Source: Polyangiaceae bacterium
GTDB taxonomy: Bacteria; Myxococcota_A; Polyangia; Polyangiales; Polyangiaceae
Assembly (NCBI GenBank): GCA_033763455.1
Contig: JANRKO010000045.1
Coordinates: 64,001 to 128,000, forward strand
Reading direction: 5' to 3'
Length of the DNA: 64,000 nt
Positions 11,823 to 62,094 of this stretch are shown here, one piece after another. The position numbers were made by a program, and so were the translations under genes. Position 1 is the stretch's first letter; each line of letters begins with the position of its first letter. The notes below the pieces were generated by a model, which worked only from the letters and a program-made list of their open reading frames with translations, made no database searches and was not told the DNA's origin.

Positions 11823-12168
11823 GGGGGCGAAGGGTTTCGACGTGGGGACTGAAGGTTAATCTGCGTGCGGTGGCGCCTGTCCCACCTTACAAAACGGGTC
11901 GTACTAATTGCGAACGATAACGCACTCGCTCTCGCAGCCTAAAAAACTGTAGAGCCGTCCAACCGCGAGATTGTCTTGGTAGCGGAAGGGCGTCAACACT
12001 AAGGCTGGTCTTCGAAGTGTGCTGCCTGGTTCGAGGACGAGACAAAGGGGAGCTAGGTCGATGGCCGAATCCACGAAACCCCGCCACCGGGGTCAATCTG
12101 TGGCTACGCACGTGAACGAAGGTTGATTGGACGCCTCGCGGATCCGGGTTCGATTCCCGGCGCCTCCA
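11823..12168 (+). ncRNA. ssrA: tmRNA (transfer-messenger RNA)
   Basis: 5' GGGGGCG pairs with 3' CGCCTCC-A including the G3:U alanine wobble; TTCGAC near the 5' end; T-loop GTTCGATTC; tag frame 11910-11942 encodes ANDNALALAA*. CCA is not encoded. Confidence 0.96.
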
Positions 12169-13369
12169 CAATCATTTCAAATAGTTGACTCACGTCTGAT
12201 CGATTGAACTGATCGATTAGACTTTTGGGTATCTCCGGAAAGACGTCGCCGATGGCCTCCCCGACGGCCTCGGCGGTGCGGATATATTTCTGTGTGGTCT
12301 CGAAGCTCGAGTGCCCAGCCCTCTGTTGGATCTTGAGAGTGTCCTCCCCCCGGATGGCGAGCCAGGTCAGCCCGGTGGAACGCAAGTCGTGGAACCGGAG
12401 GCGCTTGCTGGTCTGGTCGGTTGCGAAAAGTTCAGCTCGGGTGACGCCAGCCAGCTTGAGGTGTTGGCGGAGCCGAACCGCCCACCACTTTCGGTGAGGC
12501 AGCGAGACCACTGGGCCTTGTCCCCCTGTCCGTGCGTGCATGGCTCGAAGGAGCGGCATTAGGTTCGGCTCGATCACGAATCTCCGAATTCCTTTGTTAC
12601 CCGTTTTGGTTTTCTTTAGTGCACCGTCCTCGCCAATCGCATGGTGAATTCGCACGAGGCGGCTGTCGAAGTCAAAATCCGCCCAAGCGAGCGCGCACAG
12701 TTCGCCGGCTCGCGGAAACAGATAAATGGCGAGTGCATAAATGGCGCGCGAAGCAGCGGGGATTTCGTCGCAGTTCATCACCTTCAGGAATTCTTTTGGG
12801 GTGAGCCACTGCAGGTCCTTGGCGTCGAACATGTCGGGGGGAGCGACTCCGACACACGGATCTCCGTCCCGAACCTTGAGCAACTTAGGCTTGTCTTTTT
12901 TCCAGAGGCCAGCTGCGGCCTTCATCGCGGTTGTCCATACCGTCCAGGCGTTGAATCCCGTTTTTGCGGAGGTTTCGCCGCGTGCCACTTTCGCGTCCAG
13001 CGCGTCACGTAAACGCTCGCAATCCGCCGTTTGTATGTCCGCGGGATGCTTGTCGAGAATGGGCTGCAAGTGCGTCCGGTAGGCGCCGCCGACGTCCGTC
13101 AGGCCGAGCTTCTGACGATGCGCTAGGAAATCTTTCCACCAGGTCTCGCCTGTCCGTGCGGCCTCCTTGACCGGCACACTCTTGCGACCAGCCACGCCAT
13201 CTTTGGCGGCCATCTGCGAAAGAAACTGGGCCCGGTCCCGAGCAAACGCCTCACTCGTACCTTTGGGGAACACTGGAAGCCTGCGACGCGAACCGTCCGC
13301 CAACGTGATGACGGCCTGGAGTCTCCCATTCGGGAGCTTGAGTACGGTGCCGGATCTAGATCGAGGCAT
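12104..13369 (-). CDS. Tyrosine recombinase/integrase (island 1); ORF runs through attL into antisense tmRNA
   Basis: PRAGEL (R), FHDLR (HxxR), AGHSSFETTQKY (H..Y). Confidence 0.95.
   Translation of the reverse strand: MPRSRSGTVLKLPNGRLQAVITLADGSRRRLPVFPKGTSEAFARDRAQFLSQMAAKDGVAGRKSVPVKEAARTGETWWKDFLAHRQKLGLTDVGGAYRTHLQPILDKHPADIQTADCERLRDALDAKVARGETSAKTGFNAWTVWTTAMKAAAGLWKKDKPKLLKVRDGDPCVGVAPPDMFDAKDLQWLTPKEFLKVMNCDEIPAASRAIYALAIYLFPRAGELCALAWADFDFDSRLVRIHHAIGEDGALKKTKTGNKGIRRFVIEPNLMPLLRAMHARTGGQGPVVSLPHRKWWAVRLRQHLKLAGVTRAELFATDQTSKRLRFHDLRSTGLTWLAIRGEDTLKIQQRAGHSSFETTQKYIRTAEAVGEAIGDVFPEIPKSLIDQFNRSDVSQLFEMIVEAPGIEPGSARRPINLRSRA
12147..12169 (+). repeat. attL core: 23-bp direct repeat GGTTCGATTCCCGGCGCCTCCAC (tmRNA 3' end)
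   Basis: Exact copy at 62072-62094. Confidence 0.95.
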
Positions 13370-13444
13370 GGTTGAAAGGCCCTACTTGGAAAACGTGTGG
13401 GTTTTGCGAAATGCGCGCTCGAGCACTGAATGAGTGGGGTAACG

Positions 13445-13990
13445 TCATCGACTAACTGCCTTCGCCGCTGCCTGTTCCCAGGCTTCTAACGAAGTTGGCT
13501 CCGGCACGACAGCCGTCTTGGGGCGCGGCCTGTAGCCATTTTTTTCGATAGCTTCATCGAGCCAAGAGCGCCGAAAAATGATCCGCCCACGCTCGGCGAC
13601 ACACGATCGAAGCCTTCCCTCACGTACCCAGCGGCGGAGCGTGGGGACGGCGATGGGGACTTGGGTGGGCGCGGACCGCAGATCAAGCCACGGATCATTC
13701 GTACGCGAGCGCGAAATCGCCGTTGCCTCGATTGAGTCAGCCTGGGAACTGAGGACCGCGGCTAGGGCACGCAGATTTGTGGGGGCCAACGCAAGCAACT
13801 GGCTTTCAGATGACGCTTGGCTCGCCCCCGTCTGAGAAGAAGGCCGCTCAAGCACATCGTTCTGGGGGCGCAGGTTTCCAGGTGAGTATTTCATGACGCT
13901 CAGCCAAGAAAGCATTTTCTCGGTGTGGAAATCCACATGCTTTTGTTGCCCCCCCAATCCTGTACCGGCGAATAACCGCGTGGTTGTCAA
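13445..13990 (-). CDS. Excisionase-like HTH DNA-binding protein (true start probably downstream of the ORF-track start)
   Basis: PWLDL...VPTLRRWVREGRL...GRIIFRRSWLDE resembles HTH_17/Xis; lies directly upstream of the integrase. Confidence 0.7.
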   Translation of the reverse strand: MTTTRLFAGTGLGGQQKHVDFHTEKMLSWLSVMKYSPGNLRPQNDVLERPSSQTGASQASSESQLLALAPTNLRALAAVLSSQADSIEATAISRSRTNDPWLDLRSAPTQVPIAVPTLRRWVREGRLRSCVAERGRIIFRRSWLDEAIEKNGYRPRPKTAVVPEPTSLEAWEQAAAKAVSR

Positions 13991-13996
13991 CCGAAA

Positions 13997-15031
13997 TCAA
14001 TCGGCGACAGGTTCTTCATCTGCAGCGTTGACGCTCCCGATAAACCAAGTTCGAAAGTCAGTCCCAGCATGGCTTGCAAGGCTTGTTCGTACCCTTTTTG
14101 CCCGCCCCCTCATGTGGAGCGCACCTTCTACCGGCACGAGGCTAGCGATTTCAATTTCGGAGAATCCAGCGCTTTTGAGTTGCTGACATACTGCTATGAG
14201 CGTCGACGCTGAGGGGCTCGTCCCGCGACCGTGGCAATCAGCTGGGCGAGCCAGACAGGTAGGCCGCAACTTCTCGTCGAGCGCCAGCAGCTCCTTAGCG
14301 AGCGCTGTAAGCTCAACCGTAATCCCGTGAAGGAGCGGTGACTTGGCGTCCTGAAGACGCTTCGCGATCGCGAGTAGGTCGCGACTCGAATCCAATATCT
14401 GCGCGGCAAAACACCGAACAGCTTCCTTCAACGGTGAATCGCGAACCTCCAGCCACTCCCAGATCGATCGACAAACGGCCCCTAGTTTTCGTCTTTCAGT
14501 GGTCACTTGCGAGTTGGTCGGCCCAAGAATGTCAAAGTGCATTGCCGCTACGACTTCGACGGGCATCTGCGCTAGCTCTGGTGCTTCCCCGGCGACCCAT
14601 TCCATCAGCGGATTGATCATCGGCAGAACGTCGATGGTTTTGGTGCCACGGACGCGTTCCCTTCGGAGTGAGAACGGTGCCACGAGCTCGCCGCCGGGGG
14701 GAGCGGAAGCCTCAATTAGGCGAAGGCGATCGGAAAGTTCGCGGATCTGGGTGATAGCGCGGGCGGGCACCACGCACAGAAGCTCGTGCGGGTGTGGCAC
14801 CGCTGAGTGTGTACAGGTCAGAGGCACCATCTGTGGCACCTGGAGCCCTCTTTCGTTTAGCTGTTCCAACGCGCTGTCTCGGAGCCTTGCGTACTCTTCC
14901 GCGTCGCGCCTCAGAGCCTCCACGACTCCGGTGCTAGCGTCCTCAAGGTCGCGGCCTACCTGAGCTAGACGCGTCGCCACCATGAACGGGTTCCGCTTGT
15001 GGGGTGTTGCTGTTCGCAGCGTCGATGGCAT
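13997..15031 (-). CDS. Hypothetical island protein
   Basis: Long ORF (open up to 15181) co-oriented with xis/int; no recognised domain; start uncertain. Confidence 0.55.
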   Translation of the reverse strand: MPSTLRTATPHKRNPFMVATRLAQVGRDLEDASTGVVEALRRDAEEYARLRDSALEQLNERGLQVPQMVPLTCTHSAVPHPHELLCVVPARAITQIRELSDRLRLIEASAPPGGELVAPFSLRRERVRGTKTIDVLPMINPLMEWVAGEAPELAQMPVEVVAAMHFDILGPTNSQVTTERRKLGAVCRSIWEWLEVRDSPLKEAVRCFAAQILDSSRDLLAIAKRLQDAKSPLLHGITVELTALAKELLALDEKLRPTCLARPADCHGRGTSPSASTLIAVCQQLKSAGFSEIEIASLVPVEGALHMRGRAKRVRTSLASHAGTDFRTWFIGSVNAADEEPVAD

Positions 15032-15289
15032 GACCGTCAGCTTACGGCCGGTTGGGATCCGCGCAAGCGAGTTTGGTCGGAGGACACTACCCGCTCCGTT
15101 TGGACCGTTCCGGGTGCAACCGCGTTGCCAAGGTTTCATTGGAGCTCGGGTTCGGAAAAGGCGCATTCCGCGGGTTGTCAATTAGACGGTCCCAAGACCG
15201 CCGTGCCCCCCATTTTTTGGAATTAGAATATTGGTCCAAAAACTAAAGGCAGGATCCATTTCCCGCGAGAAACATGCCGGAGCTGAGCA

Positions 15290-15319
15290 ATATTCGGTAT
15301 TAAATTTAATTCCGAATAT
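15290..15319. promoter_or_regulatory. AT-rich 30-bp near-perfect palindrome
   Basis: ATATTCGGTATTAAATTTAATTCCGAATAT, 14 of 15 symmetric pairs; function inferred only. Confidence 0.55.
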
Positions 15320-16104
15320 ATTGGCTGGAAATTGCGAAAAGCCCTGCCCCTCTTCGCATTGGTGCGTGGAGGCGTGAACCTGTTTCGCAGGGCTCTGCCG
15401 GCTCCCGCCTAGCTCACCGAGCGAGCAGGTCACCAGCACGCATGGGTTCCGGAGCCAAGTCCTCCTCGGTGCGAAGGGAGCCTCACCCCTCCCCCTTCGC
15501 TCGGGCTCTCAAGTGTTCGCCTACTGACAAGTCCCCGCGCTGCAAACCGAGCCGCCACCGGCGACGCAATCTTCAGCGAATGAGCATGTCCCAGCGTTAG
15601 CCTGCGCACAACTAATCACCACGCTTGATGCCTCCTGCGCGCACTTGCCGCAGCTCAGCTCATTGTCTTGCACGTCGTAATCGTAGCCAGCCAACGGCGC
15701 CGCGCCCAGCTGGCATGGATCACCAAACCGTGCCAAGCGTGAAGCTGCCGTCGGCTGCTGTTTCGGTGAACAATGCGCTATCAACAATGCTTCCGTTGGG
15801 GTATGAAGTAGCATTCCTCCCAAGGACTGCGCTGGCTTGGTGATTTTCTCGCGTGTGTATTCATGTTTGTACAGAGTATGTCCGCCTGGACCTGAGCACT
15901 GCCATTCGGTGGCAGAGCGGCCAGCAATTACAGCGCCGACTCCGGGGCGCCAGAAGGGGTGGAGCGCATAGGCCGCCCAGGCTGCTTGCGCTGCACACGA
16001 GGATTAGAACGTCGGCGCTTTTGAACGCTCGGGCTCCGCAGATGAAGCGCTACCATCACATTCGACGAGGTCTGCCTCAGCCCACCACGATCCAACTCTG
16101 CCAG

Positions 16105-17424
16105 CTAAGGTAACGCGTACCCTAGGACATCCTGGGCGGGGCTGAGCGAAGCGAATTGCGGGGCGCATCCGGCTGCTAGGGCTTGAAGGCGTACCCACTC
16201 CGAGGAACGAGCTACCTTATCGACGCGCAATTCGTCAATCATGCCATTGAACCAAGAATCCACGCCGCCTTCTTCACTCCCGATGGCGTTCTCACCGCTC
16301 GGCGTGGACAGAAAAAGCGAGCCTGTCCACATTCCCTGGCGTTCGCCAACGGAGTCACCGTTGACATACAAGCGCGTTGTTTTCCGTGGAACATCAATCA
16401 CAACGGTTACGTAAGACCATTCGCGGTCAGCCACCGAATCGCGAGGCGAAAGAGCCCATTCGTAGGGGCCATCATCAGGGTTAGCCTCACCGATGAGTTC
16501 CCCTGCGGAGCTAACAGCAACTGATACTCGGGAAATATGGCTAGGTTCGGCAATACTCGTGGCAAAGAGGATCTGTTGACCTTTTTGCAGCGTAGGCTCG
16601 AGACTGCGATCGTGTTTTACCCAGGCTGATACCGTGACGCCGCTGGCGCCGGAAACGAAGTCAGCGTACTCGGGCAACTTTACGAAATCCTTCTCAAGTC
16701 GTTTCAAGAACAATCCCGCGCCAATCTTCGAGGCTGCAAAGCTCCCCATATTGGCTGCTCCTTCGCTTTGCTGGTGCCCGCTCGAATCAGCGACCTTGTC
16801 CGCCATGTGCCACACGGCGCTATAGCTGGGGGCCCACACATCACTAGCCGAAAAGGTTGACGGCGGCGAATCTTGCCCCCCGTAATAGAGCCAGAACCCG
16901 TATCCGTTCCCATTGGGTCTAAGCTCTGGCGCTCGTACCCAAATCAGGGCTTCTCCCCCTGCGGCCCAAAGCTCTACCTCGTACGGAAGCGCTTCACCTT
17001 CCGCAGAGAAGAACCGAAGACCCGCGCCGTCTGTTGCACCCCGCAGAAGTGAAGTCTGAATTCGTAGCAAGACGGGAAGGCCCGTTAGTGCCTCGGACAG
17101 ACTTGGAACCGCCAACTGCACCCAGCGCCTCGTAAGCGTAGATACAACGCTCGATGCGCCGGCAGCACCAGCCGGAGGCGCTGGTGCGGAACCCGCTTTG
17201 GCGGCCGATGCCCCACCCGACAAGAACGATGCCCCCCTACCACCCATGCCTCCCGCTGGCATCGCTCGTGTGGGTGAGACGTCGATCGTACCGCGACCCG
17301 CAGTTGTCGGCACGCTCGCCTCTTGCCCCGAAGGCAGGGAAGTGCTGGACGATGAAGTGCACGAAACTAATGCATGATGGAGGAGGGGTATGGTGATTAC
17401 AGCAATTCGAAACGCAAATTTCAT
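16105..17424 (-). CDS. Lipoprotein with DUF2341 and LamG/concanavalin-like domain (cassette 1 partner)
   Basis: Lipobox LVSC, Gly/Ala linker, LRFFS..GEALPYEVE.W...IWVR, WSYVTVV..TRLYVNG..FNGMIDELR. Confidence 0.85.
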   Translation of the reverse strand: MKFAFRIAVITIPLLHHALVSCTSSSSTSLPSGQEASVPTTAGRGTIDVSPTRAMPAGGMGGRGASFLSGGASAAKAGSAPAPPAGAAGASSVVSTLTRRWVQLAVPSLSEALTGLPVLLRIQTSLLRGATDGAGLRFFSAEGEALPYEVELWAAGGEALIWVRAPELRPNGNGYGFWLYYGGQDSPPSTFSASDVWAPSYSAVWHMADKVADSSGHQQSEGAANMGSFAASKIGAGLFLKRLEKDFVKLPEYADFVSGASGVTVSAWVKHDRSLEPTLQKGQQILFATSIAEPSHISRVSVAVSSAGELIGEANPDDGPYEWALSPRDSVADREWSYVTVVIDVPRKTTRLYVNGDSVGERQGMWTGSLFLSTPSGENAIGSEEGGVDSWFNGMIDELRVDKVARSSEWVRLQALAAGCAPQFASLSPAQDVLGYALP

Positions 17425-17427
17425 CGA

Positions 17428-18774
17428 CTAGATCCCCGGCAGAGGTTCGACTTGTTTGGCAAACTCGGTCACCCCCAACCCCGCACGTTGTAGAACGCTC
17501 AGCATGAGGCGCGCTGCCGGTAACCCACCGAAGCGGACGTGTCTTCCCGTCGTTACGGTGCCACCCCCCTTGCCCGCAAGAATCAGTGGCAAATTGGTCA
17601 CGTCATGCGCGCCACCGTTGCCGAGCTCACTCCCCATGTAGATAAGACAGTTATCAAGCACAGTGCCGTTGCCCTCTGGGGTTGCTTTTAGGGATTTCAG
17701 TAGCCGAGCAAAGAACCCTACGTGTAGACGGCCATAGCCAAGAATCCCGGGCATGTTGCCGTCGTGGTGGCAGTTGTGCTGCGCTGGCAACGTTGAGGTG
17801 CCAAGCGCTTGAGCGACAGCGGAATTCCGAGCGTCGCATAAACCGCTCTCGTTGTCACAGTCCCTACCGTTAGTGACCATGAAGCTGCCGTAGCGGGTCA
17901 TATCGCATTTGAGGGCAATTGCAAGAAGTTCATTCATGACTTCGGCGCGACGAACGCCGTCGAGGGGAGCGGCTGGGCGTTCTGGCCCGACGGCGCATAT
18001 CGGATCGGTGTTGGTGGGCGGCGAAAAGATGCTGCGCTCTAGCTCTCTCACTGCCGAAAGATGGGCATCAATCTTCTGTCGATCAGCGGGACCAACAACA
18101 GCACTCAAAGACACCGCTTCGCTCTTAACTAGGTCGAGTACACTCTTGCGAGACTGGGCCCGATAGGCATCCTCGGCGGTGCTACCTGACGCGCCAAACA
18201 GCTTGGAAAAGAGTACTCGCTCGTCACGAATCGCTGGGGCACGCTGCTGTTTGGCCACCCAAGAGATGTTGGAAATGACCGCGCCGCTGACGCTCTCCTG
18301 GACGGTGGTACTCTCCGGGCCAGCGGCTAGCACAAGCGAAGCGAAACGTGTCTCCGCCCCTTTGAGCTTTGCGGCAACTTGATCCAACGAAGGCCCACCT
18401 GCCCCAAGGTTGGTGATCGGCATGCCATTGGCGAAGGTTCCCGTTCCCACAATATGCCCGTCCGTCAGGATAGACTCGCGGTTGGCGTCAAGGCCAGTAA
18501 GGACGCTGAAGTCGGTCTTAAACTCGGCCAGGGGTTCCAACAGTGCAGTTAGCTCGTAATCAGTGCCCTCTTGCGCGGGATGCCACACCGAAGGGTGCAC
18601 ACCGTTCGGCATGAACCACGTCAGAATCCTCACGGGGGGCGAAGTTGCTGCCCTCGCAGAGTTTACGAAGAAACGACCTCGATCATCCTGCATGATATCT
18701 AGAGCGGGCAGCCCCAGCGTTGCTCCTGCCCCCATCAGCAGGGTACGACGCGAAATACGCTTAAAACGATTCAT
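17428..18774 (-). CDS. DUF1552-type Tat-exported His-rich protein (cassette 1)
   Basis: ISRRTLLMG, FMPNG, SLDQ, HNCHH, LDNCLIYMGSE..AHD..LPLILAG. Confidence 0.9.
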   Translation of the reverse strand: MNRFKRISRRTLLMGAGATLGLPALDIMQDDRGRFFVNSARAATSPPVRILTWFMPNGVHPSVWHPAQEGTDYELTALLEPLAEFKTDFSVLTGLDANRESILTDGHIVGTGTFANGMPITNLGAGGPSLDQVAAKLKGAETRFASLVLAAGPESTTVQESVSGAVISNISWVAKQQRAPAIRDERVLFSKLFGASGSTAEDAYRAQSRKSVLDLVKSEAVSLSAVVGPADRQKIDAHLSAVRELERSIFSPPTNTDPICAVGPERPAAPLDGVRRAEVMNELLAIALKCDMTRYGSFMVTNGRDCDNESGLCDARNSAVAQALGTSTLPAQHNCHHDGNMPGILGYGRLHVGFFARLLKSLKATPEGNGTVLDNCLIYMGSELGNGGAHDVTNLPLILAGKGGGTVTTGRHVRFGGLPAARLMLSVLQRAGLGVTEFAKQVEPLPGI

Positions 18775-18780
18775 AGTTAC

Positions 18781-20679
18781 TCACCTTGTGGCTATCTGTT
18801 CGTCGCGAACATAAGTAAACGCTTCGCTCCGGGCCAACGCTCTAACCAACTCCAAGAACGACCCTTCGGATGCTAAGAACGCCTGAGACAAGTAGTCCCG
18901 GGTGCACACGTCCCCAGACCCGAGTGTTCTCGCCAACGCGTAAGTGAGCACCTTGCTCACGACGCACTGTTGAAGCGCGGGAGAAGATCGGAGTTTCTGC
19001 CCAAGAGCTGGAGCGCCAACGAAATCGGGAGAGGGGAACCCAGCGAGCGTTCCCGCATCGGAGACGTTGGGATCTTCTGTGTAGACTCCTATTCCGTCGT
19101 AACGAGCGAGCCCGAATCCGAGAGGTTCAAGGAGGGCATGGCAAGCCGAGCAAGCTGGATCCGTGCGGTGCCGCGCGAGCCGCTCACGTTCACCTTCATC
19201 TCTGATTTTCTCTGGAAGGGCTGGAATGGTTGGCGGGGGCTGAGGCAGCGTCTCACACAAGAGAACTTCGCGGATGTACTTTCCGCGCTCAATGGCCGGC
19301 GCTTGGTGCTGCCCCGTTGAAACAAGAAAGGATGGCTGCGTTAGGATCCCCGAGCGCTGGCCCGCCGGAAGCTCGGCGCGAACCCAACCGAGAGCCGCTG
19401 TGGAGGGCTCTGGAATCTTGTACACGTAGCTTGCAAGCTGCCAATCAATGATCGAGTAGGAAGCTGTGACCAAATCGAGGAAGTTGGCCTTGTCTCGCCA
19501 AATTAGATCCGAGACAAAGCGCAGTGTCTCCTCTTCGGACTTCGGTTGGAGTTCAAAGGTCCATCGGCCACCGTACTCGTTCTTGAATGGGCCGCCGGGA
19601 GCGGACTGCAGTATGCGGTCCGTCTTCAGCCACTGCTGGACGAGCGAACGGAGGCCCTCCTCGGCCCTCGCATCGTTCAGCATCAGATCAACCGTGTTGG
19701 CAAGCGCAACAGGCCCTTCCAGTTCTCCAGCAGCCGCCCGATCCAGCAGGCCCGAATCCGGGGCCGTGCCCCACAAGAAATAGGCTAGCCGCGACGCAAG
19801 CTCGTAGCCGCCCAGGCGCAGCAATTCGGGCCGCCTCGGATCCTTAGTCCCGCTTTCATGACGGAAGAGAAACTTTGGCGATTGCAGAACCGCCTCTATC
19901 ACTAGCTGCGCGCCGGAGTAGGGGCTCGGCCCCGGGGATTGCGCCAGCGCCAGAAAAGCGGAGTTCTCTTCAACGGTTAACGGACGCCGGTACGCCAGGC
20001 GCCCAAATCGACTGACAAAATCCTGCAAGCACGCCGCGCGGGCCGTTCCCTCCAGGCTACACCCGATCACCTTATCTCGTCGTTTCGGATCGGCAACGAC
20101 CGCACCTGCTATACGCTCGGCCTGATTCAGGTACTGGCTGGCGTGTTCCACTGAAATATCGACCACTTCAGCGTTATTGTCGAACCCACCGATTGTGGAA
20201 TCTTGGGGAAAATCAGACGAGGGCGTGGGGAGCGCCTCAAAGTGAACGTCGCGAACGATTCGCCAACCGCGTTGAAAGTTCTCCCCAAGCAGATCACGAA
20301 CAGAATTGTCGTACTCACGATTGGTTAACTTGCGAATAAATGATGGACCGGGGTCAAGTTGTTCAAGGCTGCAGGTATACGGCCAAGGCTGAGGCGGAAC
20401 TGTCCCCTGCATACCGCCAGCGGCGCTGCCTACTCCCCCTCCCCCCACGCCGGAGGCCGCCCCACCGATGCCCGACGGTTCGGGTGTTAAGCGAGCGCCT
20501 CCGCTGGCTCCACCGGTTGGACTCGCAGCGCTTGAGCCCACTTGACCGTTATCGGGCACTGACGTGCTGCAGCCCAACAGGCAAAAAACAAACGATGCAC
20601 CCAAGATCACCGATCGAAGCCTGGCGGGGCGGCGAGCGCCCCTTACGCGGGAGGGGGCGGCAAAAAGAAGGAGTGCCAT
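18781..20679 (-). CDS. DUF1592/DUF1588-type CxxCH lipoprotein (cassette 1)
   Basis: Lipobox LLGC, RKLTNREY, AYRRPL, LQSPKFLF, ELASRLAYFLW, RG..IR..LLC..PQPPP, CSACH. Confidence 0.9.
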   Translation of the reverse strand: MALLLFAAPSRVRGARRPARLRSVILGASFVFCLLGCSTSVPDNGQVGSSAASPTGGASGGARLTPEPSGIGGAASGVGGGGVGSAAGGMQGTVPPQPWPYTCSLEQLDPGPSFIRKLTNREYDNSVRDLLGENFQRGWRIVRDVHFEALPTPSSDFPQDSTIGGFDNNAEVVDISVEHASQYLNQAERIAGAVVADPKRRDKVIGCSLEGTARAACLQDFVSRFGRLAYRRPLTVEENSAFLALAQSPGPSPYSGAQLVIEAVLQSPKFLFRHESGTKDPRRPELLRLGGYELASRLAYFLWGTAPDSGLLDRAAAGELEGPVALANTVDLMLNDARAEEGLRSLVQQWLKTDRILQSAPGGPFKNEYGGRWTFELQPKSEEETLRFVSDLIWRDKANFLDLVTASYSIIDWQLASYVYKIPEPSTAALGWVRAELPAGQRSGILTQPSFLVSTGQHQAPAIERGKYIREVLLCETLPQPPPTIPALPEKIRDEGERERLARHRTDPACSACHALLEPLGFGLARYDGIGVYTEDPNVSDAGTLAGFPSPDFVGAPALGQKLRSSPALQQCVVSKVLTYALARTLGSGDVCTRDYLSQAFLASEGSFLELVRALARSEAFTYVRDEQIATR

Positions 20680-20684
20680 GAAGA

Positions 20685-20714
20685 GTGAGTGGGCGCGGGA
20701 GGAGCGCAGGGTTA
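20685..20714 (-). promoter_or_regulatory. Putative ECF promoter TAACCC-N17-CACTCAC, 5 nt before the cassette 1 ATG
   Basis: Identical motif and spacing at 44465-44494 (+) and 47764-47793 (-). Confidence 0.75.
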
Positions 20715-20796
20715 GTTTTCCTCACCGCACGGAAACAAAATCCACGGCACCGGCGATTCTGTCAGAAAATGCCGCCTGTTCCGGCATTGAGCACCT

Positions 20797-22536: not shown

Positions 22537-22554
22537 GTTGAAGGACGCGTTCGT

Positions 22555-23925: not shown

Positions 23926-23986
23926 CCAACCTCAACCAGCCAAAGATTGCTTCGAACTCGTCACTGCACCGAAAGCCACCACTCCT

Positions 23987-25003: not shown

Positions 25004-25038
25004 ATCATTGGGGCGATTGGGCAGAGAGGGCTAACGCG

Positions 25039-44494: not shown

Positions 44495-44500
44495 CACAAG

Positions 44501-47083: not shown

Positions 47084-47114
47084 CCGGCATGAAAGGTACC
47101 GGTTGCGGAAGCAT

Positions 47115-47759: not shown

Positions 47760-47763
47760 GCTC

Positions 47764-47793: not shown

Positions 47794-47844
47794 TTTTTTT
47801 TCTGACCTCAAGAATTTAGTCGTCCACCCGGCATAGCTGCCCCA

Positions 47845-48513: not shown

Positions 48514-48557
48514 GTGTACAGAAAAACCAGCACCTACGGTCATTCCAGGTAAACCCC

Positions 48558-51667: not shown

Positions 51668-52629
51668 AGATCCTTCCAAGCGTGCTCACAATCTTTATCA
51701 GCAGCGTCATCGCTTGTGGCACTCCAACCACTGGGCGCTCTGCGCGAATGCTTGAGGTCGCGAATGGCGGCGCCACTGCGTCGTCCGCGAGTGGTGGACT
51801 CGGTGTGAATTCTGGCGGCATGCCTCTTGGCGGGCGCGCCACCGTTGGAACAGGAGCACCCGGGACAGGGGGCGCCACACCTGGTGCAGGTGGGGTGCCT
51901 TCGACGCAAGCGGGCGGTATGTTTGGCACTAGCACCAGCGGCGGCAGCTCCATGGCAACGTCAGGAGGTAACCTGGGCTCTGGAGGTGCGGCACCTACCG
52001 CCACTGGGGGAGCAAGCAGCGGCGTGGGTGGAGCCTCGCCCTTACCCGCAGGATCTCCCGGAGAGCAGCTCAACGGCTTTCGGATCGAGATCGCTTGCCA
52101 GGGGCCACACAACCCAGCGGACGAAACTTGTTACTTTCAGCAACCCTTCAACTGGGGCACCGATTCCACCGCTGCTGAGCTTGAGGCCCTCAACAACAAG
52201 CTAGACCGATTTTCGACCTTCGACGTGGGTGGGGATCCGAACGTCATCTACGATCTAGCCATCCGGGTACAAGGCGTTATTGAGACATGCCAGTGGTCGG
52301 GTGGCACCGCAGTTAATCCACACTTCATGATTGGTGGAGGCCCAAGCGGCGATGTTAACTACTTCCAATACGTACTGCAAACCTCCGATCCGCCAGCAAC
52401 CTACGGCCTGAACGGCGGCGGCTACGGTCACAACTTAACCAAGATGGACTACACCGCCTCGGTCCGCGCAAAAGGGGGCTCTCGCATCACCGTGCGTGTG
52501 CGCGACCGTAATGTGGTGCAAGTGGCTAATTGGGAGATGTTCTCCGTACCGGGGATTGCGCCAGCGCCAGCTATCTACGACGGGCAACACCTCCAATTCA
52601 CCGTCACAGCTGCGGTTCCCGCGCAATAG
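51664..52629 (+). CDS. Lipoprotein with Gly-rich linker and unknown beta-rich domain (cassette 6 partner)
   Basis: VIAC lipobox, GTGA overlap with the DUF1552 stop, ~185-aa globular C-terminal domain. Confidence 0.8.
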   Translation: MKILPSVLTIFISSVIACGTPTTGRSARMLEVANGGATASSASGGLGVNSGGMPLGGRATVGTGAPGTGGATPGAGGVPSTQAGGMFGTSTSGGSSMATSGGNLGSGGAAPTATGGASSGVGGASPLPAGSPGEQLNGFRIEIACQGPHNPADETCYFQQPFNWGTDSTAAELEALNNKLDRFSTFDVGGDPNVIYDLAIRVQGVIETCQWSGGTAVNPHFMIGGGPSGDVNYFQYVLQTSDPPATYGLNGGGYGHNLTKMDYTASVRAKGGSRITVRVRDRNVVQVANWEMFSVPGIAPAPAIYDGQHLQFTVTAAVPAQ

Positions 52630-52819
52630 ATTCGCCGTTAGCCAGGGCGCTTGTGCCGGCTGGCGACGTTCGACGCTCGGCCCGAACACCCTTATTCGAT
52701 TCCGGCCCCGAACGGCGCCACGCGCTGGCCACGCCTGTGCCCATTCTGACCGAAAAGTCTTGGCAATTCCCCTAGCCATGAACATCTATGCTAGCTATCC
52801 TTGCTTATCAGGGCAGCGT

Positions 52820-54688: not shown

Positions 54689-56250
54689 GCCGGTCTTCCT
54701 CCCGCCTGCACCGTCGCTGGTTCCTTGCTGGAGCCGGCGGGGCGCTTTTGCCTTTGCCACTTCTCGGTTCACTCTTCTCACCGGGCACCTCAGAAGCGCA
54801 GGCGTTGCGAGAAAAGTGTTTTGGCTTTTTCTACCAGCCCCATGGTAACGCCTACCAGCGGGACATGTACCCGAGCCAGGCCACGCTCACTAACACCATG
54901 GCCTACGCCGGCCACACGATCCGCAATGGCGCGTTGGTGGGCAACGATAGCGCTGGGGAAATGCGTGTCTCGGAGGTGCTGAGGGCACCTTCGACGCGGC
55001 TTTCTCAAGCCTTGGTGGCCAAGATGAACGTGCTCATGGGTCTCGATGTGCCCTTCTACCAAAGCCACAACACCGGGATGGCGCTTGGAAATTTTGGGGA
55101 CAACCAGCAAGGGATCAAATCGGTGGTCGCCAATGGCCGCCGCCCAACGCTTGATCAAATCCTGGCTTGGTCCCCAACCTTTTATTCAGATGCGTCACGT
55201 GTGGTGAACCGCTCTGTGGTGCTTGGCGATCAATCCTTCGCTCATGCAAACCCGAAAACCAGGGTGGGGCCCATCGAAATGGTGGGCAAGACAGCACAGG
55301 GCAGCCGAGATCTCTTCGATCAACTTTTCAACACAACCACAGGCCCACGCGAGAAGCTTCTTATCGACAAGACGCTCGCCAACTACACGGCGCTCCGTAA
55401 CGGCAACCAACGCTTGTCCTCCGGGGACAAGCGGCGCCTGGACGATCATATCGAAAGCCTCTACGAGCTCCAACGCAAGCTGATAGCTGCGACGAGCGGC
55501 ACTCCGCCGCCCCGCCCGGCCACGAACAGCACCGATCTCTCAAACAAGACCGAATACAGCATGGATCCGGCGCTTCAGGTGCAGGCCTACCAGCTTTGGA
55601 ATGACGTCATTGTGGCGGCATTTTCAACCGGCACGTCGCGCGTGATCAGCACCAGCATCTGGGATGCCTCGTTCACCACCTATCCGGGATCGGCCTATGG
55701 CGGCTCTTGGCACCAAGAGGTAGCCCACAAAGCCTCCATCGACGCAGCAGCCTACACCCTGCTGCTCACCTCATACCGCACATTCTTCGCAGACGTGTTC
55801 GTCGATCTCGCCAAGAAGCTGGACGCGGTGGATCGCGGTGGAGGCACCACCTTGCTGGATGATTGCCTCCTGTTCTGGACGCATGAATCTGGGCACCACA
55901 CCCACGATCCGATCTGTGTCCCCGTGGTCACGTTCGGATCGGCCGCAGGTGGCATGAAAACTGGTCAATTCTGCGACTACAGAGATCTCACCCGCAAGAT
56001 GAAGGGTGGTGATGATCTCCAGAAGGAAGACTACGAGATAGGGCTGCTTTGGCATCAATGGCTCGGCAGCGTGTTCCAAGCTCTGGGTATACCCAAATCA
56101 GAGTATGAAGTTCCCGCGGAGAACGGCGGCTATCCCAACTTTCACTGGCAGCAGACGGACTATTACACTCTCGTGGGAGGCGAAAAGACGCTGTACCCTG
56201 ACAGCGTGTGGAACGTTACCGGGGAGATGTTGCCGTGGCTGGGACCGTGA
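54685..56250 (+). CDS. DUF1552-type Tat-exported His-rich protein (cassette 7)
   Basis: LHRRWFLAG, QPHG, TLDQ, WHQEVAH, LLDDCLLFWTHESGHHTH; ATGA overlap. Confidence 0.9.
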   Translation: MSRSSSRLHRRWFLAGAGGALLPLPLLGSLFSPGTSEAQALREKCFGFFYQPHGNAYQRDMYPSQATLTNTMAYAGHTIRNGALVGNDSAGEMRVSEVLRAPSTRLSQALVAKMNVLMGLDVPFYQSHNTGMALGNFGDNQQGIKSVVANGRRPTLDQILAWSPTFYSDASRVVNRSVVLGDQSFAHANPKTRVGPIEMVGKTAQGSRDLFDQLFNTTTGPREKLLIDKTLANYTALRNGNQRLSSGDKRRLDDHIESLYELQRKLIAATSGTPPPRPATNSTDLSNKTEYSMDPALQVQAYQLWNDVIVAAFSTGTSRVISTSIWDASFTTYPGSAYGGSWHQEVAHKASIDAAAYTLLLTSYRTFFADVFVDLAKKLDAVDRGGGTTLLDDCLLFWTHESGHHTHDPICVPVVTFGSAAGGMKTGQFCDYRDLTRKMKGGDDLQKEDYEIGLLWHQWLGSVFQALGIPKSEYEVPAENGGYPNFHWQQTDYYTLVGGEKTLYPDSVWNVTGEMLPWLGP

Positions 56251-58227
56251 GGTTCCGAGTGCGCGATCACATCCAGGCACCATCCTTTTTTATCGTCCTT
56301 TGCTGCTCGTTCTTCGCGTGCTCTTCTGAGCAGGCATCGAAAGCACCGGTCGGCTCAGGTGGTTTCAGCGCTGTTGGAGGTGGGGGAAGCATCGGCGGCG
56401 CAAGAGCTGGAGTGATGGTCGCTTCTGCGGGCGGTATTCCGGCAGCCGGCGGTGCGATTGGTTCTGCCGGGGGCACTCCGGGGTTCGGTGGTGTGGCGAA
56501 TGCGCAAGTTGGAGGCGCGGTTGCGATTGGTGGCGGGCCGGGTAGTTCAGCGAGCTCTGGGGGAACGGGTGGAGCCGCTCAGAATTTTGGATTCTTCGTC
56601 GCCGTAGGGGACGTCGGGCGTAGCACCATTTCCTGCGACGACGGGCAGAGCTGGGTAGCCAATCGTTCTGACGACGATGCGCGGCGGTGTTGGAGTCAAA
56701 CCAATGGGGATTGCGATCACGATCCCGGGCAAGCCCGCGGCCTTGCGTTTCACGCTGGCCAATTTGTAGCTTCCTTTGGCTGGACCAACGGCGGCTCCAC
56801 CATTCGAACCTCTGCAGACGGCGTTAACTGGACAACAGTCTTCACCCAGGCCGATCCATCACACCTAGGCACCGGCGGAGCCCTCTTTGGGCGCGGCGTT
56901 TGGCTTGTTCCGACCGCTTATGGGCCGCTCCTAGCCACTTCCCCTGAAGGCACTTGGGAGACCTTGGGCGCGATTCAAGCGGGGGATGTAAGTTTAGCGC
57001 ACGTGCGCGCTGCGGCTTTCGGCGGGTCTGCCGAAGGAGCCTTCATCGTTGTAGGCGGCGTTTCTGGTGGGGGTCTAGTTTCAGGGGCAGAAGACGTCCT
57101 TGTCTCGACCAATCCGCGCACCGGTTGGACTCGCGCGGCAACTCTCAGTGCCTGCACCAAGTCGGCCTATCGTAACCGTAGCGCCAAGTGCACAGCTTGA
57201 CGATGCTCCAAAATTAGGGTGAGCGAGCTCAACTCGGGGCTGGAGGCGGACGCCAATTTTCCGGGAGAAGCTGGTCGATTCGGCTGGCGGGTGTGGAGTC
57301 GAGCTTAGTTAGGATGTCGGTGAGGTATGCTAACGGATTAACGCCGTTGGCTTCGCAGGTCGCCAGCACGGTGTAGAGATTTGCGAGATTTTCGCCTGAT
57401 TCCTGATTGCCGACAAATAGGAAGTTCTTTCTGCCGAGAGCGACGACGCGCAGAGCTCGTTCGGACTGGTTATTGTCGGGTGGAATGAGGGCATTCTCAA
57501 GAAACCGAGTCAACGCTTCCCAGTTCTTGCAAGCATAGCTGATGGCACGGCCGAGCTTGCTCTTCGGTAGCTGACGCGGTTCTTGTTCGTGCATCCAGAG
57601 TTGCAAGCTTTCCATGAGCGGCACACTCAATTGCTGGCGTAGCTTCAGGTGCTCAGGTGTTCGGGCTATGCCGCGCTCAAGCGCGGTGTGCTCAACAACG
57701 TAAACTTGGCGGATGATTTCCAGTGCTGCTTTTGCTTCCGGCGCGTCTTTCAGTGCATCAAAAAACTTGCGGCGCGCATGAGCGAGGCATCCTGCGCGTT
57801 CTCGCCCATCCACCTGCGTGACTGCGTTGTACCCAGTGTAGGCATCAACCACCAACGTCCCTTGCGTGCCACCGAGTACAAGTTTGGGTGTTTGCCCGCT
57901 TCGATCTGGACTGAAACAGTACGCGATGGATTTGCCGGCAATGAAAGTCCACACATAGGGGCGCTTAGCGCTCTCTTGTGTTCGATGCGTTGTTTCGTCC
58001 GCAAGCACAATGTCGGAGGTTGCAATTTGTGCGAGGATCCGCCGCGCGACAATGCCGAGAGCATTACCTACACGATTGTAGAGCGTATTCATCGTGCTTC
58101 GCGACATCGGCATTCCGAGGCGTTGAAACGACTTTTCGAGCCGATAAAGCGGCACGCAATCCAGTGTTTTGGTAACGGCGAGATAGGCCATAAACCCGGG
58201 CCCGTATTGGATCTTCTCGAAAACCTT

Positions 58228-59575
58228 GAGCGTGTCAGAATTTTCGTGTAGCTTGACTCATACGGGCAAACGACCTTCGAAAAAAATGTCGAGTTGAGCG
58301 AGGGTGCGATACCAAGACTTATCTGCGTTCCACCGGGTCTTAGCGTTGCGGATGGCAAGGAAAAAGAGCTTGAAGACGGCCTCGTCGTTGGGAAATGGGC
58401 CTCGATTTCTCAGAGGCTTCCGCAATTGCGAGTTTAGAGATTCGATGGCATTTGTCGTGTAAAGTATGCGCCGAAGTTCGGGGGGATAGGCAAGAAACGG
58501 AACAAAGTGCTCCCAGCGATTGCGGAAGGTGCGAGCGACCCCGGGATACTTGCTGTTGTATCTGGCCTCAATGGCCTCAAGCTCCGCCTTGGCCTGTGTT
58601 TCGTTTTCGGCGGTGTACATCGGCCGCAGTGCCGTAGCCAACTCCTTGCGGTCTGTCCACGACACGTAACGGAGTGCGTTTCGGATGAGATGCACGATGC
58701 ACGTCTGCAGCACGGCACGCGGGAAGGCCGCCTCCAGCGCCTTGTCGAGCCCAGAAAGGCCGTCGGCGCATACGAAGAGAATGTCCTCGACGCCTCGGCC
58801 TTTGAGTTCCGTGAGGATATTCAGCCAGAATTTGGCCCCCTCGGTTTCGGCCGCCCAGATGCCCAGGACGTCTCGTGTTCCGTTCAGGGTAACGCCCAGT
58901 GCGACGTAGAAGGCCCGTTTTTGCACTTGCACGCCATCTCGCACCGATACGAAAAGTGCATCGAGGTAAACCACTGGGTACACTGCATCTAGCGGGCGGC
59001 TTTGCCAGTCCCGGAACGCCGGCATCACAGCGTCCGTTGCTTTGGAAATGAGCTCGTGGGAGACGTCCGTACCGTACAGTTCCCGCAGGTGAGCCTGAAT
59101 GTCACGCGTCGTCATGCCGCGGGCGTAGAGCGCCAAGACCTTGTCGTCGAAGCCTTCTACGCGCCGCTGGTGCTTCTTCACCACCTGGGGCACGAAGGTC
59201 CCATTCCGATCCCGCGGCACCCGGATTCGAACCGGCCCAGACTCGGTGTGCACGGTCTTGTCGCTGTGCCCATTGCGCACGTTGGGGCTGTCTCCCGTGC
59301 CGCTTGCCTCCTCCAGGTGCGCGGCGAGCTCACCCTCCAGCAGGCGCTCCATCACCGCGCCCTTGAGCTGTGTGAACAGCCCCTCCGGGCCGAACATGTC
59401 ACCCCCGTCTGCGGCGCACTCGGCTATCAGTCGGTCGAGAAACTCACGCTTCTCGGCTGCAAGTTCCCGGTTGCTTTTTGATGGTGTAGAATTTTTCTTT
59501 GTTGATTGTGTTTCCATGAGTGACTCCCTTTAAGTCACCCGTTTTGTCAAATTACACAAACTTTCTGACACTCCC
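58228..59575 (-). mobile_element. IS256-family insertion sequence (1348 bp)
   Basis: Imperfect ~30-bp IRs (GAGCGTGTCAGAA... / GGGAGTGTCAGAA...); 8-bp TSD AAAACCTT at 58220-58227 and 59576-59583. Confidence 0.95.
58258..59517 (-). CDS. IS256-family transposase
   Basis: RNG, VPRDR.G.F, YARGMTTR, VYLDA, ADGL.G, QTCIVH, YTTNAIES. Confidence 0.96.
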   Translation of the reverse strand: METQSTKKNSTPSKSNRELAAEKREFLDRLIAECAADGGDMFGPEGLFTQLKGAVMERLLEGELAAHLEEASGTGDSPNVRNGHSDKTVHTESGPVRIRVPRDRNGTFVPQVVKKHQRRVEGFDDKVLALYARGMTTRDIQAHLRELYGTDVSHELISKATDAVMPAFRDWQSRPLDAVYPVVYLDALFVSVRDGVQVQKRAFYVALGVTLNGTRDVLGIWAAETEGAKFWLNILTELKGRGVEDILFVCADGLSGLDKALEAAFPRAVLQTCIVHLIRNALRYVSWTDRKELATALRPMYTAENETQAKAELEAIEARYNSKYPGVARTFRNRWEHFVPFLAYPPELRRILYTTNAIESLNSQLRKPLRNRGPFPNDEAVFKLFFLAIRNAKTRWNADKSWYRTLAQLDIFFEGRLPV

Positions 59576-60060
59576 AAAACCTTCGCTGGTACCGGAGCCG
59601 TCACAACATGCTTGCCACAAGAGCAAACGAGCTTTTCTCGATTGTAGATGCGCCGGCGAAAATGCCCCGGCACATAGTCGACGATCGTTGTCGGCTTGGG
59701 TGACGCAATCTTCTGCAATTCGTCCTTGCCACACTTCGGGCAACACCGAAGTGGCTCCGGTACCGGCGTCTCGACCGTTTCCGTCGTCATCGTTGCTGCC
59801 TTCAGCTCAGCGTTCTTTTCGCGAGTGCGCTGACTTTGCACCGGATCAGGCTTCTTACCGCGCCGGACCTCGCGCGCCATCGGCGGCATTTTCTCGCTCT
59901 TCTTCCCAAAGATGTGCCGCTTCAATGCCTCGATTTCGGCCTTAGCGCGCTCCATTTCGGCCCTGGTGCGCTCCATCTCAGCCTTCGAGTGCTCAAGCTC
60001 CGCGGTGATCTTGCTCACCTCGTTTTTCCACTCGCACTCGTGGCTCTGCTCGCCCATCGA

Positions 60061-60465
60061 CTAGGTTTGATCAAAGTTTGGCTGATCTGTCGATCCCTTT
60101 TTTTCTCTTTCTTCACTCGATGTTTGCCAGTGTCGAGCGCGGCGCACCATGTTCACGTCGATGCCATCCAGCAGCATCGCCAGTTCGGTCGAATCGAGCT
60201 CAGTATGTGTGCTCGCGCTCTTCACCTTAGGAAGACGAAAGCAGCCGCGCTCCAAACGCTTGTAATACAAGACGAATCCACCGCGGTCCCAGAAGAGGAT
60301 CTTGCAACGGTCGCGCCGCTTGCCGACAAAAATGAAGAGATGCCCTGCGAAAAGCTCGCGTTTCCAGTCGTTCCGGACAATGGCAGCCAAGCCATCGTGC
60401 CCCCGCCGCATGTCGACGGGCTCCGCGGCAATCCACAACTTCACGCTCAACGGTAACGTCAGCAT
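60061..60465 (-). CDS. tnpB: IS66 accessory protein
   Basis: PVDMRRG.DGL, LFIF..KRRDRCKILFWDRGGF.L..KRLE.G.F. Confidence 0.95.
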   Translation of the reverse strand: MLTLPLSVKLWIAAEPVDMRRGHDGLAAIVRNDWKRELFAGHLFIFVGKRRDRCKILFWDRGGFVLYYKRLERGCFRLPKVKSASTHTELDSTELAMLLDGIDVNMVRRARHWQTSSEEREKKGSTDQPNFDQT

Positions 60466-60761
60466 CAGCCGCGCAGCGCACGCATCACAGCCGCGACATA
60501 CTCGGAGCTCGCCCCAATGAGCGCCACAACCGGCGCTTCCGGTCCATGGGTCAGGAGCTCGTGACGCACCTTCACCGGCACGAATCGCGCCAGCGGTGCT
60601 CGCCGCCGCGACACCCGCTTCTTGCTAGACATCACCCGCCCTTTCAAAGTGTACGGGTTTACGCCGTGTTTCTTAGCCAACTCGTGATACGTCGCGCCGC
60701 CTGCACGGTACTCCTCCACCACCGAGTTCCAGAACTTATCGTCTCGTCGCTCAACTTTCAT
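60465..60761 (-). CDS. tnpA: IS66 accessory HTH protein
   Basis: HTH-like (FW..VVEEY..ELAKKHGVNPYTL), FVPV motif; first ORF in the IS. Confidence 0.8.
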   Translation of the reverse strand: MKVERRDDKFWNSVVEEYRAGGATYHELAKKHGVNPYTLKGRVMSSKKRVSRRRAPLARFVPVKVRHELLTHGPEAPVVALIGASSEYVAAVMRALRG

Positions 60762-61400
60762 CGGCAACAAGTAACCCGAACGCCGGCTTCATCAGGCCCT
60801 GTACTTCACGCTACGGTTACGGCCTATCGCCGTCAGAACTTAGTGGCCAATAGCCAAGTGCTCCTGGATATTCTTGATGATGGAACCGTGTGCCGCTCGG
60901 CAGATCTCGCTGTTAACTGGTCCTCGGTAGCCCTTTCTGGAACCGTGAACAGCGATGCTGTGTGGACGGGCGCCGAGTTCTTTGTCTGGGGTCACGATAC
61001 CAACAACACTCCGACAGCATTTCACAGCCCGGATGGTTCGTCTTGGGTGGCCACAACCACTTCGCTCGCGGGCCAGCGTGGCCCCGAGCTCAATCGGATC
61101 GGAGTGAGCGACACAGGAACCTTCGTGGCAACGAACGGCGGCGTTTACGAGCAGCAGCACTTCTACGGAAGCCAAGATGGCATCTCGTGGGTGGAAGTGC
61201 CTGAAGGAGCCTTCACACCGAGCCACACCATCAACTTTATCCGCCACGGTCGAGGCAACAAGCCGGCAGTATGCAACGAATGAAACTCATATCCTATTTT
61301 CCGCGAGTCCGTGTGTGCGCACAAAAAGAAATGCCTACTCCGCAGGCCGGTGAATGCTTGCAGAGTAGGCACTTTGGCCAGAGATACCTCCGACTCCTGG

Positions 61401-61730
61401 TTACCACCAACGCTTGAACTTCCCGTCACGGCCCCGGTACCGCTCCACCGGGGGGTCCCAGGATGCGACTCGTCCCAGCAGCTGCAAAGCACCGCCCCCT
61501 ATGATTGCTGCGATGCCGAGGCGTGCCCAAACGTTCGAGCTACCCGCCGGTACCCGCGGAGTAGGCTGCGGTGCGGATACCGGGTGGGCTGCCGGTGGGA
61601 CGCCTGGGGGGATGGTGAGACCTCCGGCTTCGGGGGAGGCGTCCAGATCCCGCGTGAGCACAGCCCTTTCGGAGCGCTCAATTCCGCTCTTTTCCGCTTC
61701 AGTAGGTGACGATGATTCAATAATTGCCAT
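61401..61730 (-). CDS. Small hypothetical protein with one hydrophobic segment
   Basis: AGAGGA RBS before ATG 61730; 109 aa, ends YRGRDGKFKRWW. Confidence 0.55.
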   Translation of the reverse strand: MAIIESSSPTEAEKSGIERSERAVLTRDLDASPEAGGLTIPPGVPPAAHPVSAPQPTPRVPAGSSNVWARLGIAAIIGGGALQLLGRVASWDPPVERYRGRDGKFKRWW

Positions 61731-61833
61731 ATTATCCTCTCGGTTGTGGGTAAAATCCAGGAACTTTGGCACGAACAAACAGCTGCTCGTGCCCTGCCCC
61801 AGGATGTCTTTATTGCCGCGCGCTTGGACCCGG

Positions 61834-62094
61834 TCATGTCCGCAACCCCTGCAGAAGCATCGCGACGCGGTCGGCGATCCCCTTCAGCGCTACGCTCAAC
61901 AGGTGATCCGCCAGCAGACGGTCAATCCACAGAAGGCCTCCAGTGTTCCGATCGATTGGCAATCGATCAGTGATCACATTCCGGGCACTTACGCCGATGG
62001 ACGAGGCAGTCTGCGGATCAGCACCCTGCTGCGAATCCCCGGCATTCTGCGCGGTCTCGATACATGCCGGCGGTTCGATTCCCGGCGCCTCCAC
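61834..62094 (-). other. Orphan open frame starting in attR: predicted C-terminal extension of integrase 1 in the excised circle
   Basis: 86 open codons beginning VEAPGIEP, the same frame in which integrase 1 crosses attL. Confidence 0.7.

Follow-up and report, generated by a model that had tools for sequence, protein, structure and literature searches.

A tyrosine integrase gene with its attachment site inside the coding sequence, on a genomic island in the tmRNA gene of a Polyangia bacterium

The stretch of contig JANRKO010000045.1 analyzed here, 64 kb in all and called the window throughout, carries a genomic island of about 49.9 kb (12170-62071, hereafter island 1), which is inserted in the 3' end of the transfer-messenger RNA (tmRNA) gene of a Polyangia (Myxococcota) bacterium. 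The tyrosine integrase gene of this island, int1, contains the attachment site of the element, attP, within its coding sequence, and therefore the integrated and the excised state of the island give the integrase different C-termini, of 13 and 78 residues, respectively. The features that define this arrangement, most of them found as or within open reading frames (ORFs), are the following.

11823-12169, plus strand: complete tmRNA gene (ARAGORN, tag ANDNALALAA; Rfam RF00023, 129.8 bits, model positions 1-374 of 374).
12104..13369, minus strand: int1, tyrosine integrase, integrated-state form of 421 residues (ORF; PF00589; 168 homologues).
12104..12146, minus strand: the last 13 codons and the stop of int1 in the integrated state, read from the tmRNA gene in antisense (ORF).
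12147-12169: core copy 1, the left attachment site (attL) of island 1 and the last 23 bases of the tmRNA gene (exact 23-bp repeat).
61834..62071, minus strand: the P-arm tail (78 codons and a stop), which becomes the C-terminus of int1 only if the core links 62071 to 12170 (ORF; computed join).
62072-62094: core copy 2, which serves both as the right attachment site (attR) of island 1 and as the junction, on the tmRNA side, of a second island, island 2 (exact repeat; ORF of the second integrase, int2).

The 23-bp core is present in exactly two copies in the window, and still in two when up to 3 mismatches are permitted; the repeat appeared in 0 of 100 shuffled sequences, with 0 expected. The identity between the copies ends at both edges of the 23 bases and does not extend one base further. 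According to the Rfam alignment, core 1 comprises the last two bases of the 5' strand of the T stem, the T loop, the 3' strand of the T stem, and the 3' strand of the acceptor. Recombination in the T loop, with restoration of the 3' end of the gene, produces the layout expected of islands within genes for tRNA and tmRNA (tDNA), and here one end has a complete tDNA and the opposite end a displaced 3' fragment, with an integrase gene inside the island. This displaced 3' fragment and restored 3' end are also what PMC4383910 describes for tDNA islands.

The int1 frame reads through core 1 as VEAPGIEP and ends 13 residues later. About 50 kb away, the minus-strand ORF at 61834..62094, of 86 codons, continues from core 2 in the same frame as int1, and the computed join of 62071 to 12170 through one core gives a single open frame of 486 codons. 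A first-pass annotation, made from the letters of the window, had proposed this core, the int1 product of 421 residues, the ORF of 86 codons, and the composite of 486 residues, and every one of these numbers proved correct in our ORF listing and computed join, as did its reading that attP lies inside int1 and that integration exchanges 78 C-terminal residues for 13. The Phage_integrase domain (PF00589) is found at residues 188-366 of int1 with 59 bits, the cut-off being 27.1, and residues R220, H327, R330, H353, and Y362, which we take to be catalytic, are invariant across 23 sequences. As the same annotation had held, the catalytic domain lies entirely upstream of the core, with Y362 39 residues ahead of it, and all of the catalytic residues are thus present in both the 421- and the 486-residue forms. 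We regard this anatomy of the split int1 gene as very likely correct.

The next question is whether the 78-residue tail is a coding sequence at all. An open frame of this length can arise by chance, as had already been conceded in the first-pass annotation, given that at least 78 sense codons lie ahead of 13% of Markov-simulated positions and of 22% of all positions in the window; the open frame by itself is therefore weak evidence. The GC content by codon position, of 0.63, 0.51, and 0.64, makes GC at third positions useless as a coding signal here. A codon log-odds table was derived from 28 long ORFs of the window. By this measure, the tail's 78 codons reach 0.193 per codon, which is the 53rd percentile of 167 true in-frame windows and exceeds 99% of 552 stop-free off-frame windows, and the 13 tmRNA-derived codons of int1 score -0.36. 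In addition, the tail has homologues that are joined to an integrase. P0001, the closest relative of int1 among the matches listed, is a contiguous protein of 491 residues with 72% identity, and its C-terminus is identical to the tail at 24 of 64 residues (E 2e-9). The integrase of locus L055, a contiguous protein of 499 residues, has a body 41% identical to int1 and a C-terminus that also matches the tail (E 1e-9), and it crosses a stretch that matches the antisense 3' end of tRNA-Asp genes for 21-22 exact bases, followed by one mismatch. Because the core of L055 is of the tRNA-Asp type and that of the window is of tmRNA, the tail accompanies the integrase body across differing targets. In both relatives, the tail is conserved and unbroken, a check which the first-pass annotation had itself proposed.

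One conserved part of the tail is the following.

61858..61926, minus strand: conserved 23-codon helix block (in alignment with P0001, L055, and a metagenomic protein, P0124).

Between the window and L055, this block shares 14 of its 23 residues, 7 of them with identical codons and 7 with synonymous codons, and the 9 replacements are mostly conservative, which is the pattern of selection at the protein level. The tail is more than a chance frame because its codon usage is gene-like, because it is homologous to P0001 and L055, and because its changes follow this synonymous pattern; judging from these comparisons, it is a real conserved coding sequence, in which an amphipathic helix of about 25 residues comes after a variable linker.

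Beyond these relatives, few sequences resemble the tail of the window. A profile of the window and P0001 tails, run in word-indexed searches against a set of 5.8 billion proteins, found only P0001 among the longer proteins and only P0124 among those of similar length, and an Atlas search with the window tail gave nothing over 0.78. No NCBIfam model matched the tail, and for the integrases themselves the only matches, of Xer type, fell below threshold. The 86-residue tail, run with HMMER against the full set of 1.84 billion representatives, returned only 2 matches, both to long repeat proteins, which were aligned in 6-8 stretches and were judged spurious. The metagenomic protein P0124, of 114 residues, consists of an integrase-like N-terminal strand region, a Pro/Ser-rich linker, and a helix almost identical to the tail helix of P0001, and it reflects either the rearrangement of a gene or a helix that works as a module by itself. 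In P0001, a core-like stretch at about residues 397-410 is seemingly read in a different frame (GGAGNRN) and is followed by a second, partial core-like peptide, APGI, after which the conserved tail resumes.

Short motif copies flank both cores.

12196..12221, no strand assigned: CTGATCGATT(G/A) in two direct copies, which lie within the int1 coding sequence at 29-52 bp from the core; candidate sites of integrase binding in the P' arm.
61950..61968, no strand assigned: perfect 9+1+9 palindrome built from the 9-bp motif, at a distance of 104-122 bp from the core; candidate binding sites in the P arm.

On both strands of the 64 kb taken together, there are three exact copies of the 9-mer GATCGATTG, one at 12198 and two in the palindrome, compared with a simulated mean of 0.53 and with 2.5% of the simulated runs reaching three. 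Together with a 1-mismatch copy 13 bp beyond the one at 12198, there are four copies in all, with the consensus GATCGATT(G/A), and every copy lies within 125 bp of a core; in the orientation of the integrase, the sites precede the core by about 30-50 bp and follow it by about 105-120 bp. In the contig of L055, the motif is confined to two places, one about 50 bp ahead of the core and the other about 100 bp past it, where it forms a near-identical palindrome. When the window and L055 are compared over the 17 codons that surround the palindrome, 6 codons are identical and only 2 synonymous, so that this part is conserved as DNA. We infer from this placement that the motif copies are candidate arm-type binding sites, in which case the whole attP, roughly from -120 to +50 around the core, would lie within the composite gene. 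The attP of the Myxococcus phage Mx8 is likewise reported to lie wholly within int and to need arm sequences on both sides of its core. A further element is a 14-nt imperfect inverted repeat (62032-62045 and 62064-62077, 86% complementary), the second arm of which overlaps the first 6 bases of core 2, and which may be a core-type binding-site pair of attP.

The split layout was then followed among the relatives of int1, with homologue counts taken from 120 listed of the 168 homologues. The core peptide is found near the C-terminal end of 53 of these 120; 31 of the 53 go on from it into an ending of the tDNA-antisense type, and in 24 of these 31 that ending, counted from the first core codon, is exactly 21 residues long, like that of int1. 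Eight listed homologues continue for at least 60 residues beyond the core, and three of them (P0004, P0047, and P0095), together with five long forms having other cores, share a second, commoner type of tail with a conserved helix pair. At the genomic level, a scan of species-representative genomes, the window's own genome not among them, yielded 78 loci, nearly all labelled Polyangiales, Polyangiaceae, Sorangium, or other Myxococcota, a few having other labels; 5 of the 78 integrase ORFs ran off their locus, and 21 have their stop inside an antisense tDNA, namely in 6 tmRNA genes and 15 tRNA genes of seven kinds.

The far end was searched in the 31 loci having a tDNA at the integrase end, with up to 10 kb of upstream sequence each. 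No distal repeat was found within that distance in 25 of the 31, and five showed one of 15-29 nt: L002, L006, L007 (tmRNA), L071 (tRNA-Asp), and L072 (tRNA-Asn); their islands measure 3-9.6 kb. Immediately beyond the distal repeat, each of the five has DNA that matches a hidden Markov model of the tail whose only source was the set of 8 contiguous long forms, with E 2.7e-11 to 2.6e-4 in a search of 20,726 six-frame segments. The tail is in frame with the core copy in four of the five; in L071, an intervening run of N makes the frame not judgeable. The separated tails of Sorangium cellulosum So ce56 (L006) and So ceGT47 differ by 11 synonymous and 10 non-synonymous changes, with 7 of the synonymous and none of the non-synonymous ones falling in codons 50-90, where the helices are, and their integrase bodies differ by 36 synonymous and 36 non-synonymous changes. 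In So ce56, a terminator-like hairpin lies ahead of the distal core, and the separated tail has no obvious expression signal. On this evidence, the split layout is common in this Polyangia integrase clade. One further locus of the 31 had a distal repeat of 13 nt, which was taken as chance. In L006, a 146-bp tandem repeat of 2.9 copies with 99% matching (1816-2242) covers the last ~44 codons of the tail, the extra copies being out of frame, and the other Sorangium strain, L007, has two copies of it (~1709-1987).

With respect to structure, the AlphaFold2 model of P0001 (31-row alignment) has a confident body up to about residue 380, predicted disorder at residues 385-451, the core-encoded stretch included, and a helix at 452-477 with a predicted local distance difference test score (pLDDT) of only about 56-60. 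The model of P0004, which carries the commoner tail, is confident up to about residue 405, disordered at 406-475, and has two helices at 479-493 and 497-515 with pLDDT of about 94-95. The models depict the swapped part as a tethered helical module outside the catalytic fold. A complex prediction of the P0004 body (1-405) with its tail (470-530) scored 0.00 and carries no weight either way.

This kind of arrangement is already known, and phage Mx8 is its standard case. According to PMC4701971, integration of Mx8 swaps 112 C-terminal residues of its integrase for 13, the modified form is less active, and Mx8 is cited as one of very few elements whose recombinase rewrites its own gene; the first-pass annotation had rightly cited this precedent, which PMC4383910 and PMC6070905 also treat. 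Mx8 and int1 have in common an attP inside int, the replacement of a long C-terminus (112 residues in Mx8, 78 in int1) by 13 residues of the target tDNA, a small gene just upstream of int, and a Myxococcota host, and the Mx8 Int sequence itself crosses a tRNA-like stretch. In contrast, int1 has only 26% identity to Mx8 Int over 111 residues (E 6e-4) and is not its orthologue, its target is tmRNA while that of Mx8 is tRNA-Asp, and it resides on a 50-kb cargo island without phage genes. The tails of int1 and Mx8 Int have no significant similarity either (BLASTP E 0.23 for the int1 tail vs. Mx8 Int), and a search of a phage collection with int1 by tblastn found distant integrases only, of at most 25.6% identity, with Mx8 not among them. 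The small gene upstream of int1 is the following.

13445..13990, minus strand: HTH_17 protein directly upstream of int1 (PF12728, 24.4 bits, under the 27-bit cut-off).

By position and domain, this protein is a candidate excisionase; neither it nor the HTH_17 protein upstream of int2 showed similarity to Uoi of Mx8.

In the excised circle, the int1 gene would consist of the body, the 8 core-encoded residues, and the 78-residue tail, 486 residues in all. Integration joins body and core to the antisense strand of the tmRNA gene, thus adding 13 residues and a stop and leaving the tail stranded 50 kb away. On this basis, we propose that the long form would arise only from the circle, or from the junction of like elements in tandem, and would be the efficient integrating enzyme, while the short chromosomal form would be less active, though keeping its catalytic residues, and the integrated state would thereby be stabilized. 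The difference in activity is put forward because of the precedent of Mx8, with IntP on the phage and IntX (or IntR) in the prophage, and we consider it evenly balanced whether the 421- and 486-residue forms really differ in this respect. The explanation as a whole, that is, attP inside int1, a conserved tail swapped off, and a less active short form, seems to us likely.

Several points weigh against this explanation. The switch in integrase activity or stability, which the first-pass annotation had also put forward, is carried over by analogy from Mx8. The tail type of the window is rare, its helix is a low-confidence prediction, and part of the tail conservation, around the palindrome, is at the DNA level. 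P0001 appears, from the protein alone, to read its core-like stretch in another frame. The tandem repeat over the end of the L006 tail muddies the Sorangium comparison. The tail of the window has no significant similarity to the commoner tail or to that of Mx8 (hhalign E 0.47, 0.33, and 0.11 for the comparisons among the three; hmmsearch at most 6 bits), so that no relation among them can be claimed. Lastly, island 1 may be immobile now, in view of its lack of transfer genes and its insertion sequence (IS) elements, as in the following region.

57229..60770, minus strand: IS66-family element (zf-IS66, DDE_Tnp_IS66, HTH_Tnp_1; Pfam scan), split by a Mutator-family transposase gene at 58258-59517.

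This last point is the basis of one alternative, which is that island 1 integrated a single time and is no longer excised, the swap of C-termini having no present role and the intact tail merely reflecting a recent event. The Pfam scan of 42 ORFs revealed neither conjugation nor phage genes, the IS66-family and Mutator-family insertions are close to the P arm, and the base composition of island 1 is uniform with that of its flanks, all as a relic would have it; the two core copies, however, are identical at 23 of 23 bases, and int1 is intact, as are its tail and all four copies of the motif. Such a relic fits the anatomy equally and bears only on the present activity of the element, and we regard it as unlikely.

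A second alternative, to which we give slightly less credit still, holds that the overlap is a by-product of attP geometry, with arm sites that must flank the core, a frame that happens to be open, and a tail that is neutral read-through. The frequency of open frames of this length in the window agrees with it, as do the DNA-level conservation around the palindrome, the rarity of the tail type, and a linker that is variable and predicted to be disordered. Neutral read-through, however, does not explain why 14 of the 23 residues in the helix block are retained, with different codons at 7 of the 14, why the codon usage of the tail is gene-like, or why the tail stays in frame in relatives with a different core, and the commoner tail class, with its two confidently predicted helices and, in Sorangium, 7 synonymous and 0 non-synonymous changes in the helix region, also argues against it.

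Finally, that the 86-codon ORF is an independent small gene with a GTG start inside the core, or a chance ORF unrelated to int1, is very improbable: it does start with GTG, and the clusters nearest to the commoner tail in an Atlas search with that of P0004 are short Myxococcota hypothetical proteins (0.87-0.90, a lead only), but the same sequence is the C-terminus of the contiguous integrases P0001 and L055, the distal core in Sorangium is preceded by a terminator-like hairpin and not by a promoter region, and the tail matches no Pfam or NCBIfam family.

Returning to the exchange of C-termini, it can be extended to the entire clade of Polyangia tRNA and tmRNA integrases as split genes. In this extension, a conserved helical C-terminal module would always lie beyond attP, under purifying selection despite its separation; the full enzyme would be made only from the circle or from a tandem junction of like elements, and the topology of the gene would report the state of the element and set the direction or stability of recombination. 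We offer this broader proposal tentatively, leaning somewhat against it. If it were true, neighbours in tandem arrays would set the ends of each other's integrases, which may be compared with the end of int2 in the arm of island 1.

Other known systems share parts of this arrangement. In the integration-dependent immunity of mycobacteriophages, attP lies in the 3' end of the repressor gene, and integration truncates the repressor. Corynephage CyranoPS has attP at the 3' end of a regulatory gene, whose C-terminus and activity are altered by integration. The gene altered in these two cases is a repressor gene, in contrast to the integrase gene altered here. Integration of the SSV1 type splits the integrase gene in two and separates the catalytic region, whereas the catalytic domain of int1 stays whole on one side of the core. 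What SSV1-type archaeal integrases share with int1 is an attP inside the integrase gene (PMC4383910). The streptococcal integrative and conjugative elements in rumA, according to PMC4701971, also have the attachment site inside the integrase gene and excised and integrated forms that differ in length and C-terminus, but these are serine integrases with a protein-coding target gene. The tmRNA islands catalogued by Islander and TIGER resemble island 1 in that an integrase-bearing element occupies the 3' end of the tmRNA gene and its far end is marked by the displaced 3' fragment, and arrays occur among them; PMC4383910 permits an overlap of integrase and attachment site only as an exception to one Islander filter. 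In the literature searched, mostly papers free of subscription and seen in part, we found neither this clade of integrases nor its targeting of tmRNA nor its conserved tail modules described. In sum, int1 shares the architecture of Mx8 and not its orthology.

The window and its relatives suggest that the layout is not an oddity of one phage, but a recurrent design of myxobacterial integrases whose targets are tmRNA and no fewer than eight types of tRNA. At least two tail modules without significant similarity, one of them with a confidently predicted helical hairpin, would provide natural variants for testing the effects of the C-terminal module. There is also a consequence for annotation, since the C-termini annotated for the integrases of this clade are tmRNA antisense sequence, their separated tails look like orphan ORFs, and integrase length varies with the state of the element.

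Beyond core 2, a second integrase is found.

61989..63347, minus strand: int2, Mx8-Int-family integrase of island 2, 452 residues (ORF; PF00589).
63340..63750, minus strand: HTH_17 protein upstream of int2 (PF12728, 43.8 bits).

It is int2, unlike int1, that belongs to the Mx8 Int family, with 33% identity to Mx8 Int over 357 residues (E 3e-43). Because int2 with its own HTH_17 gene, and not the chromosome, adjoins core 2, the two islands form a tandem array, in which island 1 adjoins the intact tmRNA gene and island 2 lies beyond core 2 and continues past the edge of the window. The first-pass annotation had taken 62072-62094 as attR, which is right for island 1, but this is not a simple attR, given that it is a tandem-array junction with int2 reading across it, which had been overlooked. 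The int2 frame crosses core 2 in a different frame from that of the int1 tail and ends in the P arm of island 1, overlapping the tail ORF; without island 1, int2 would extend into the antisense strand of the tmRNA gene and have 511 codons in all. A 94-codon open frame is antisense to nearly the whole tmRNA gene (11887-12171, minus strand), in the frame that int2 has across the core; it is probably of chance origin, yet it fixes the length of int2 prior to the arrival of island 1. Within int2, toward its 3' end and about 30-55 bp away from the core, a 12-nt unit is repeated twice in tandem (62125-62151), and these repeats may be arm sites for int2, being in the same relative place as the motif pair of int1.

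The remaining features are the chromosomal flank and the cargo of island 1.

10217-11647, minus strand: DUF234/ATPase_2 protein that has a winged-helix region; its gene lies immediately upstream of that for tmRNA and marks the left flank, which is chromosomal.
13997..57200: island cargo, including DUF1592/DUF1588-type and DUF1552 pairs (Pfam scan).

In this cargo, the Pfam scan found eight gene pairs of the DUF1592/DUF1588 type (PSD/PSCyt) with DUF1552, two extracytoplasmic function (ECF) sigma factors, and FecR-like, ThuA, CBM6, and LamG proteins. The eight paralogous pairs dominate the cargo from 16105 to 56250, an unusual load for a mobile island.

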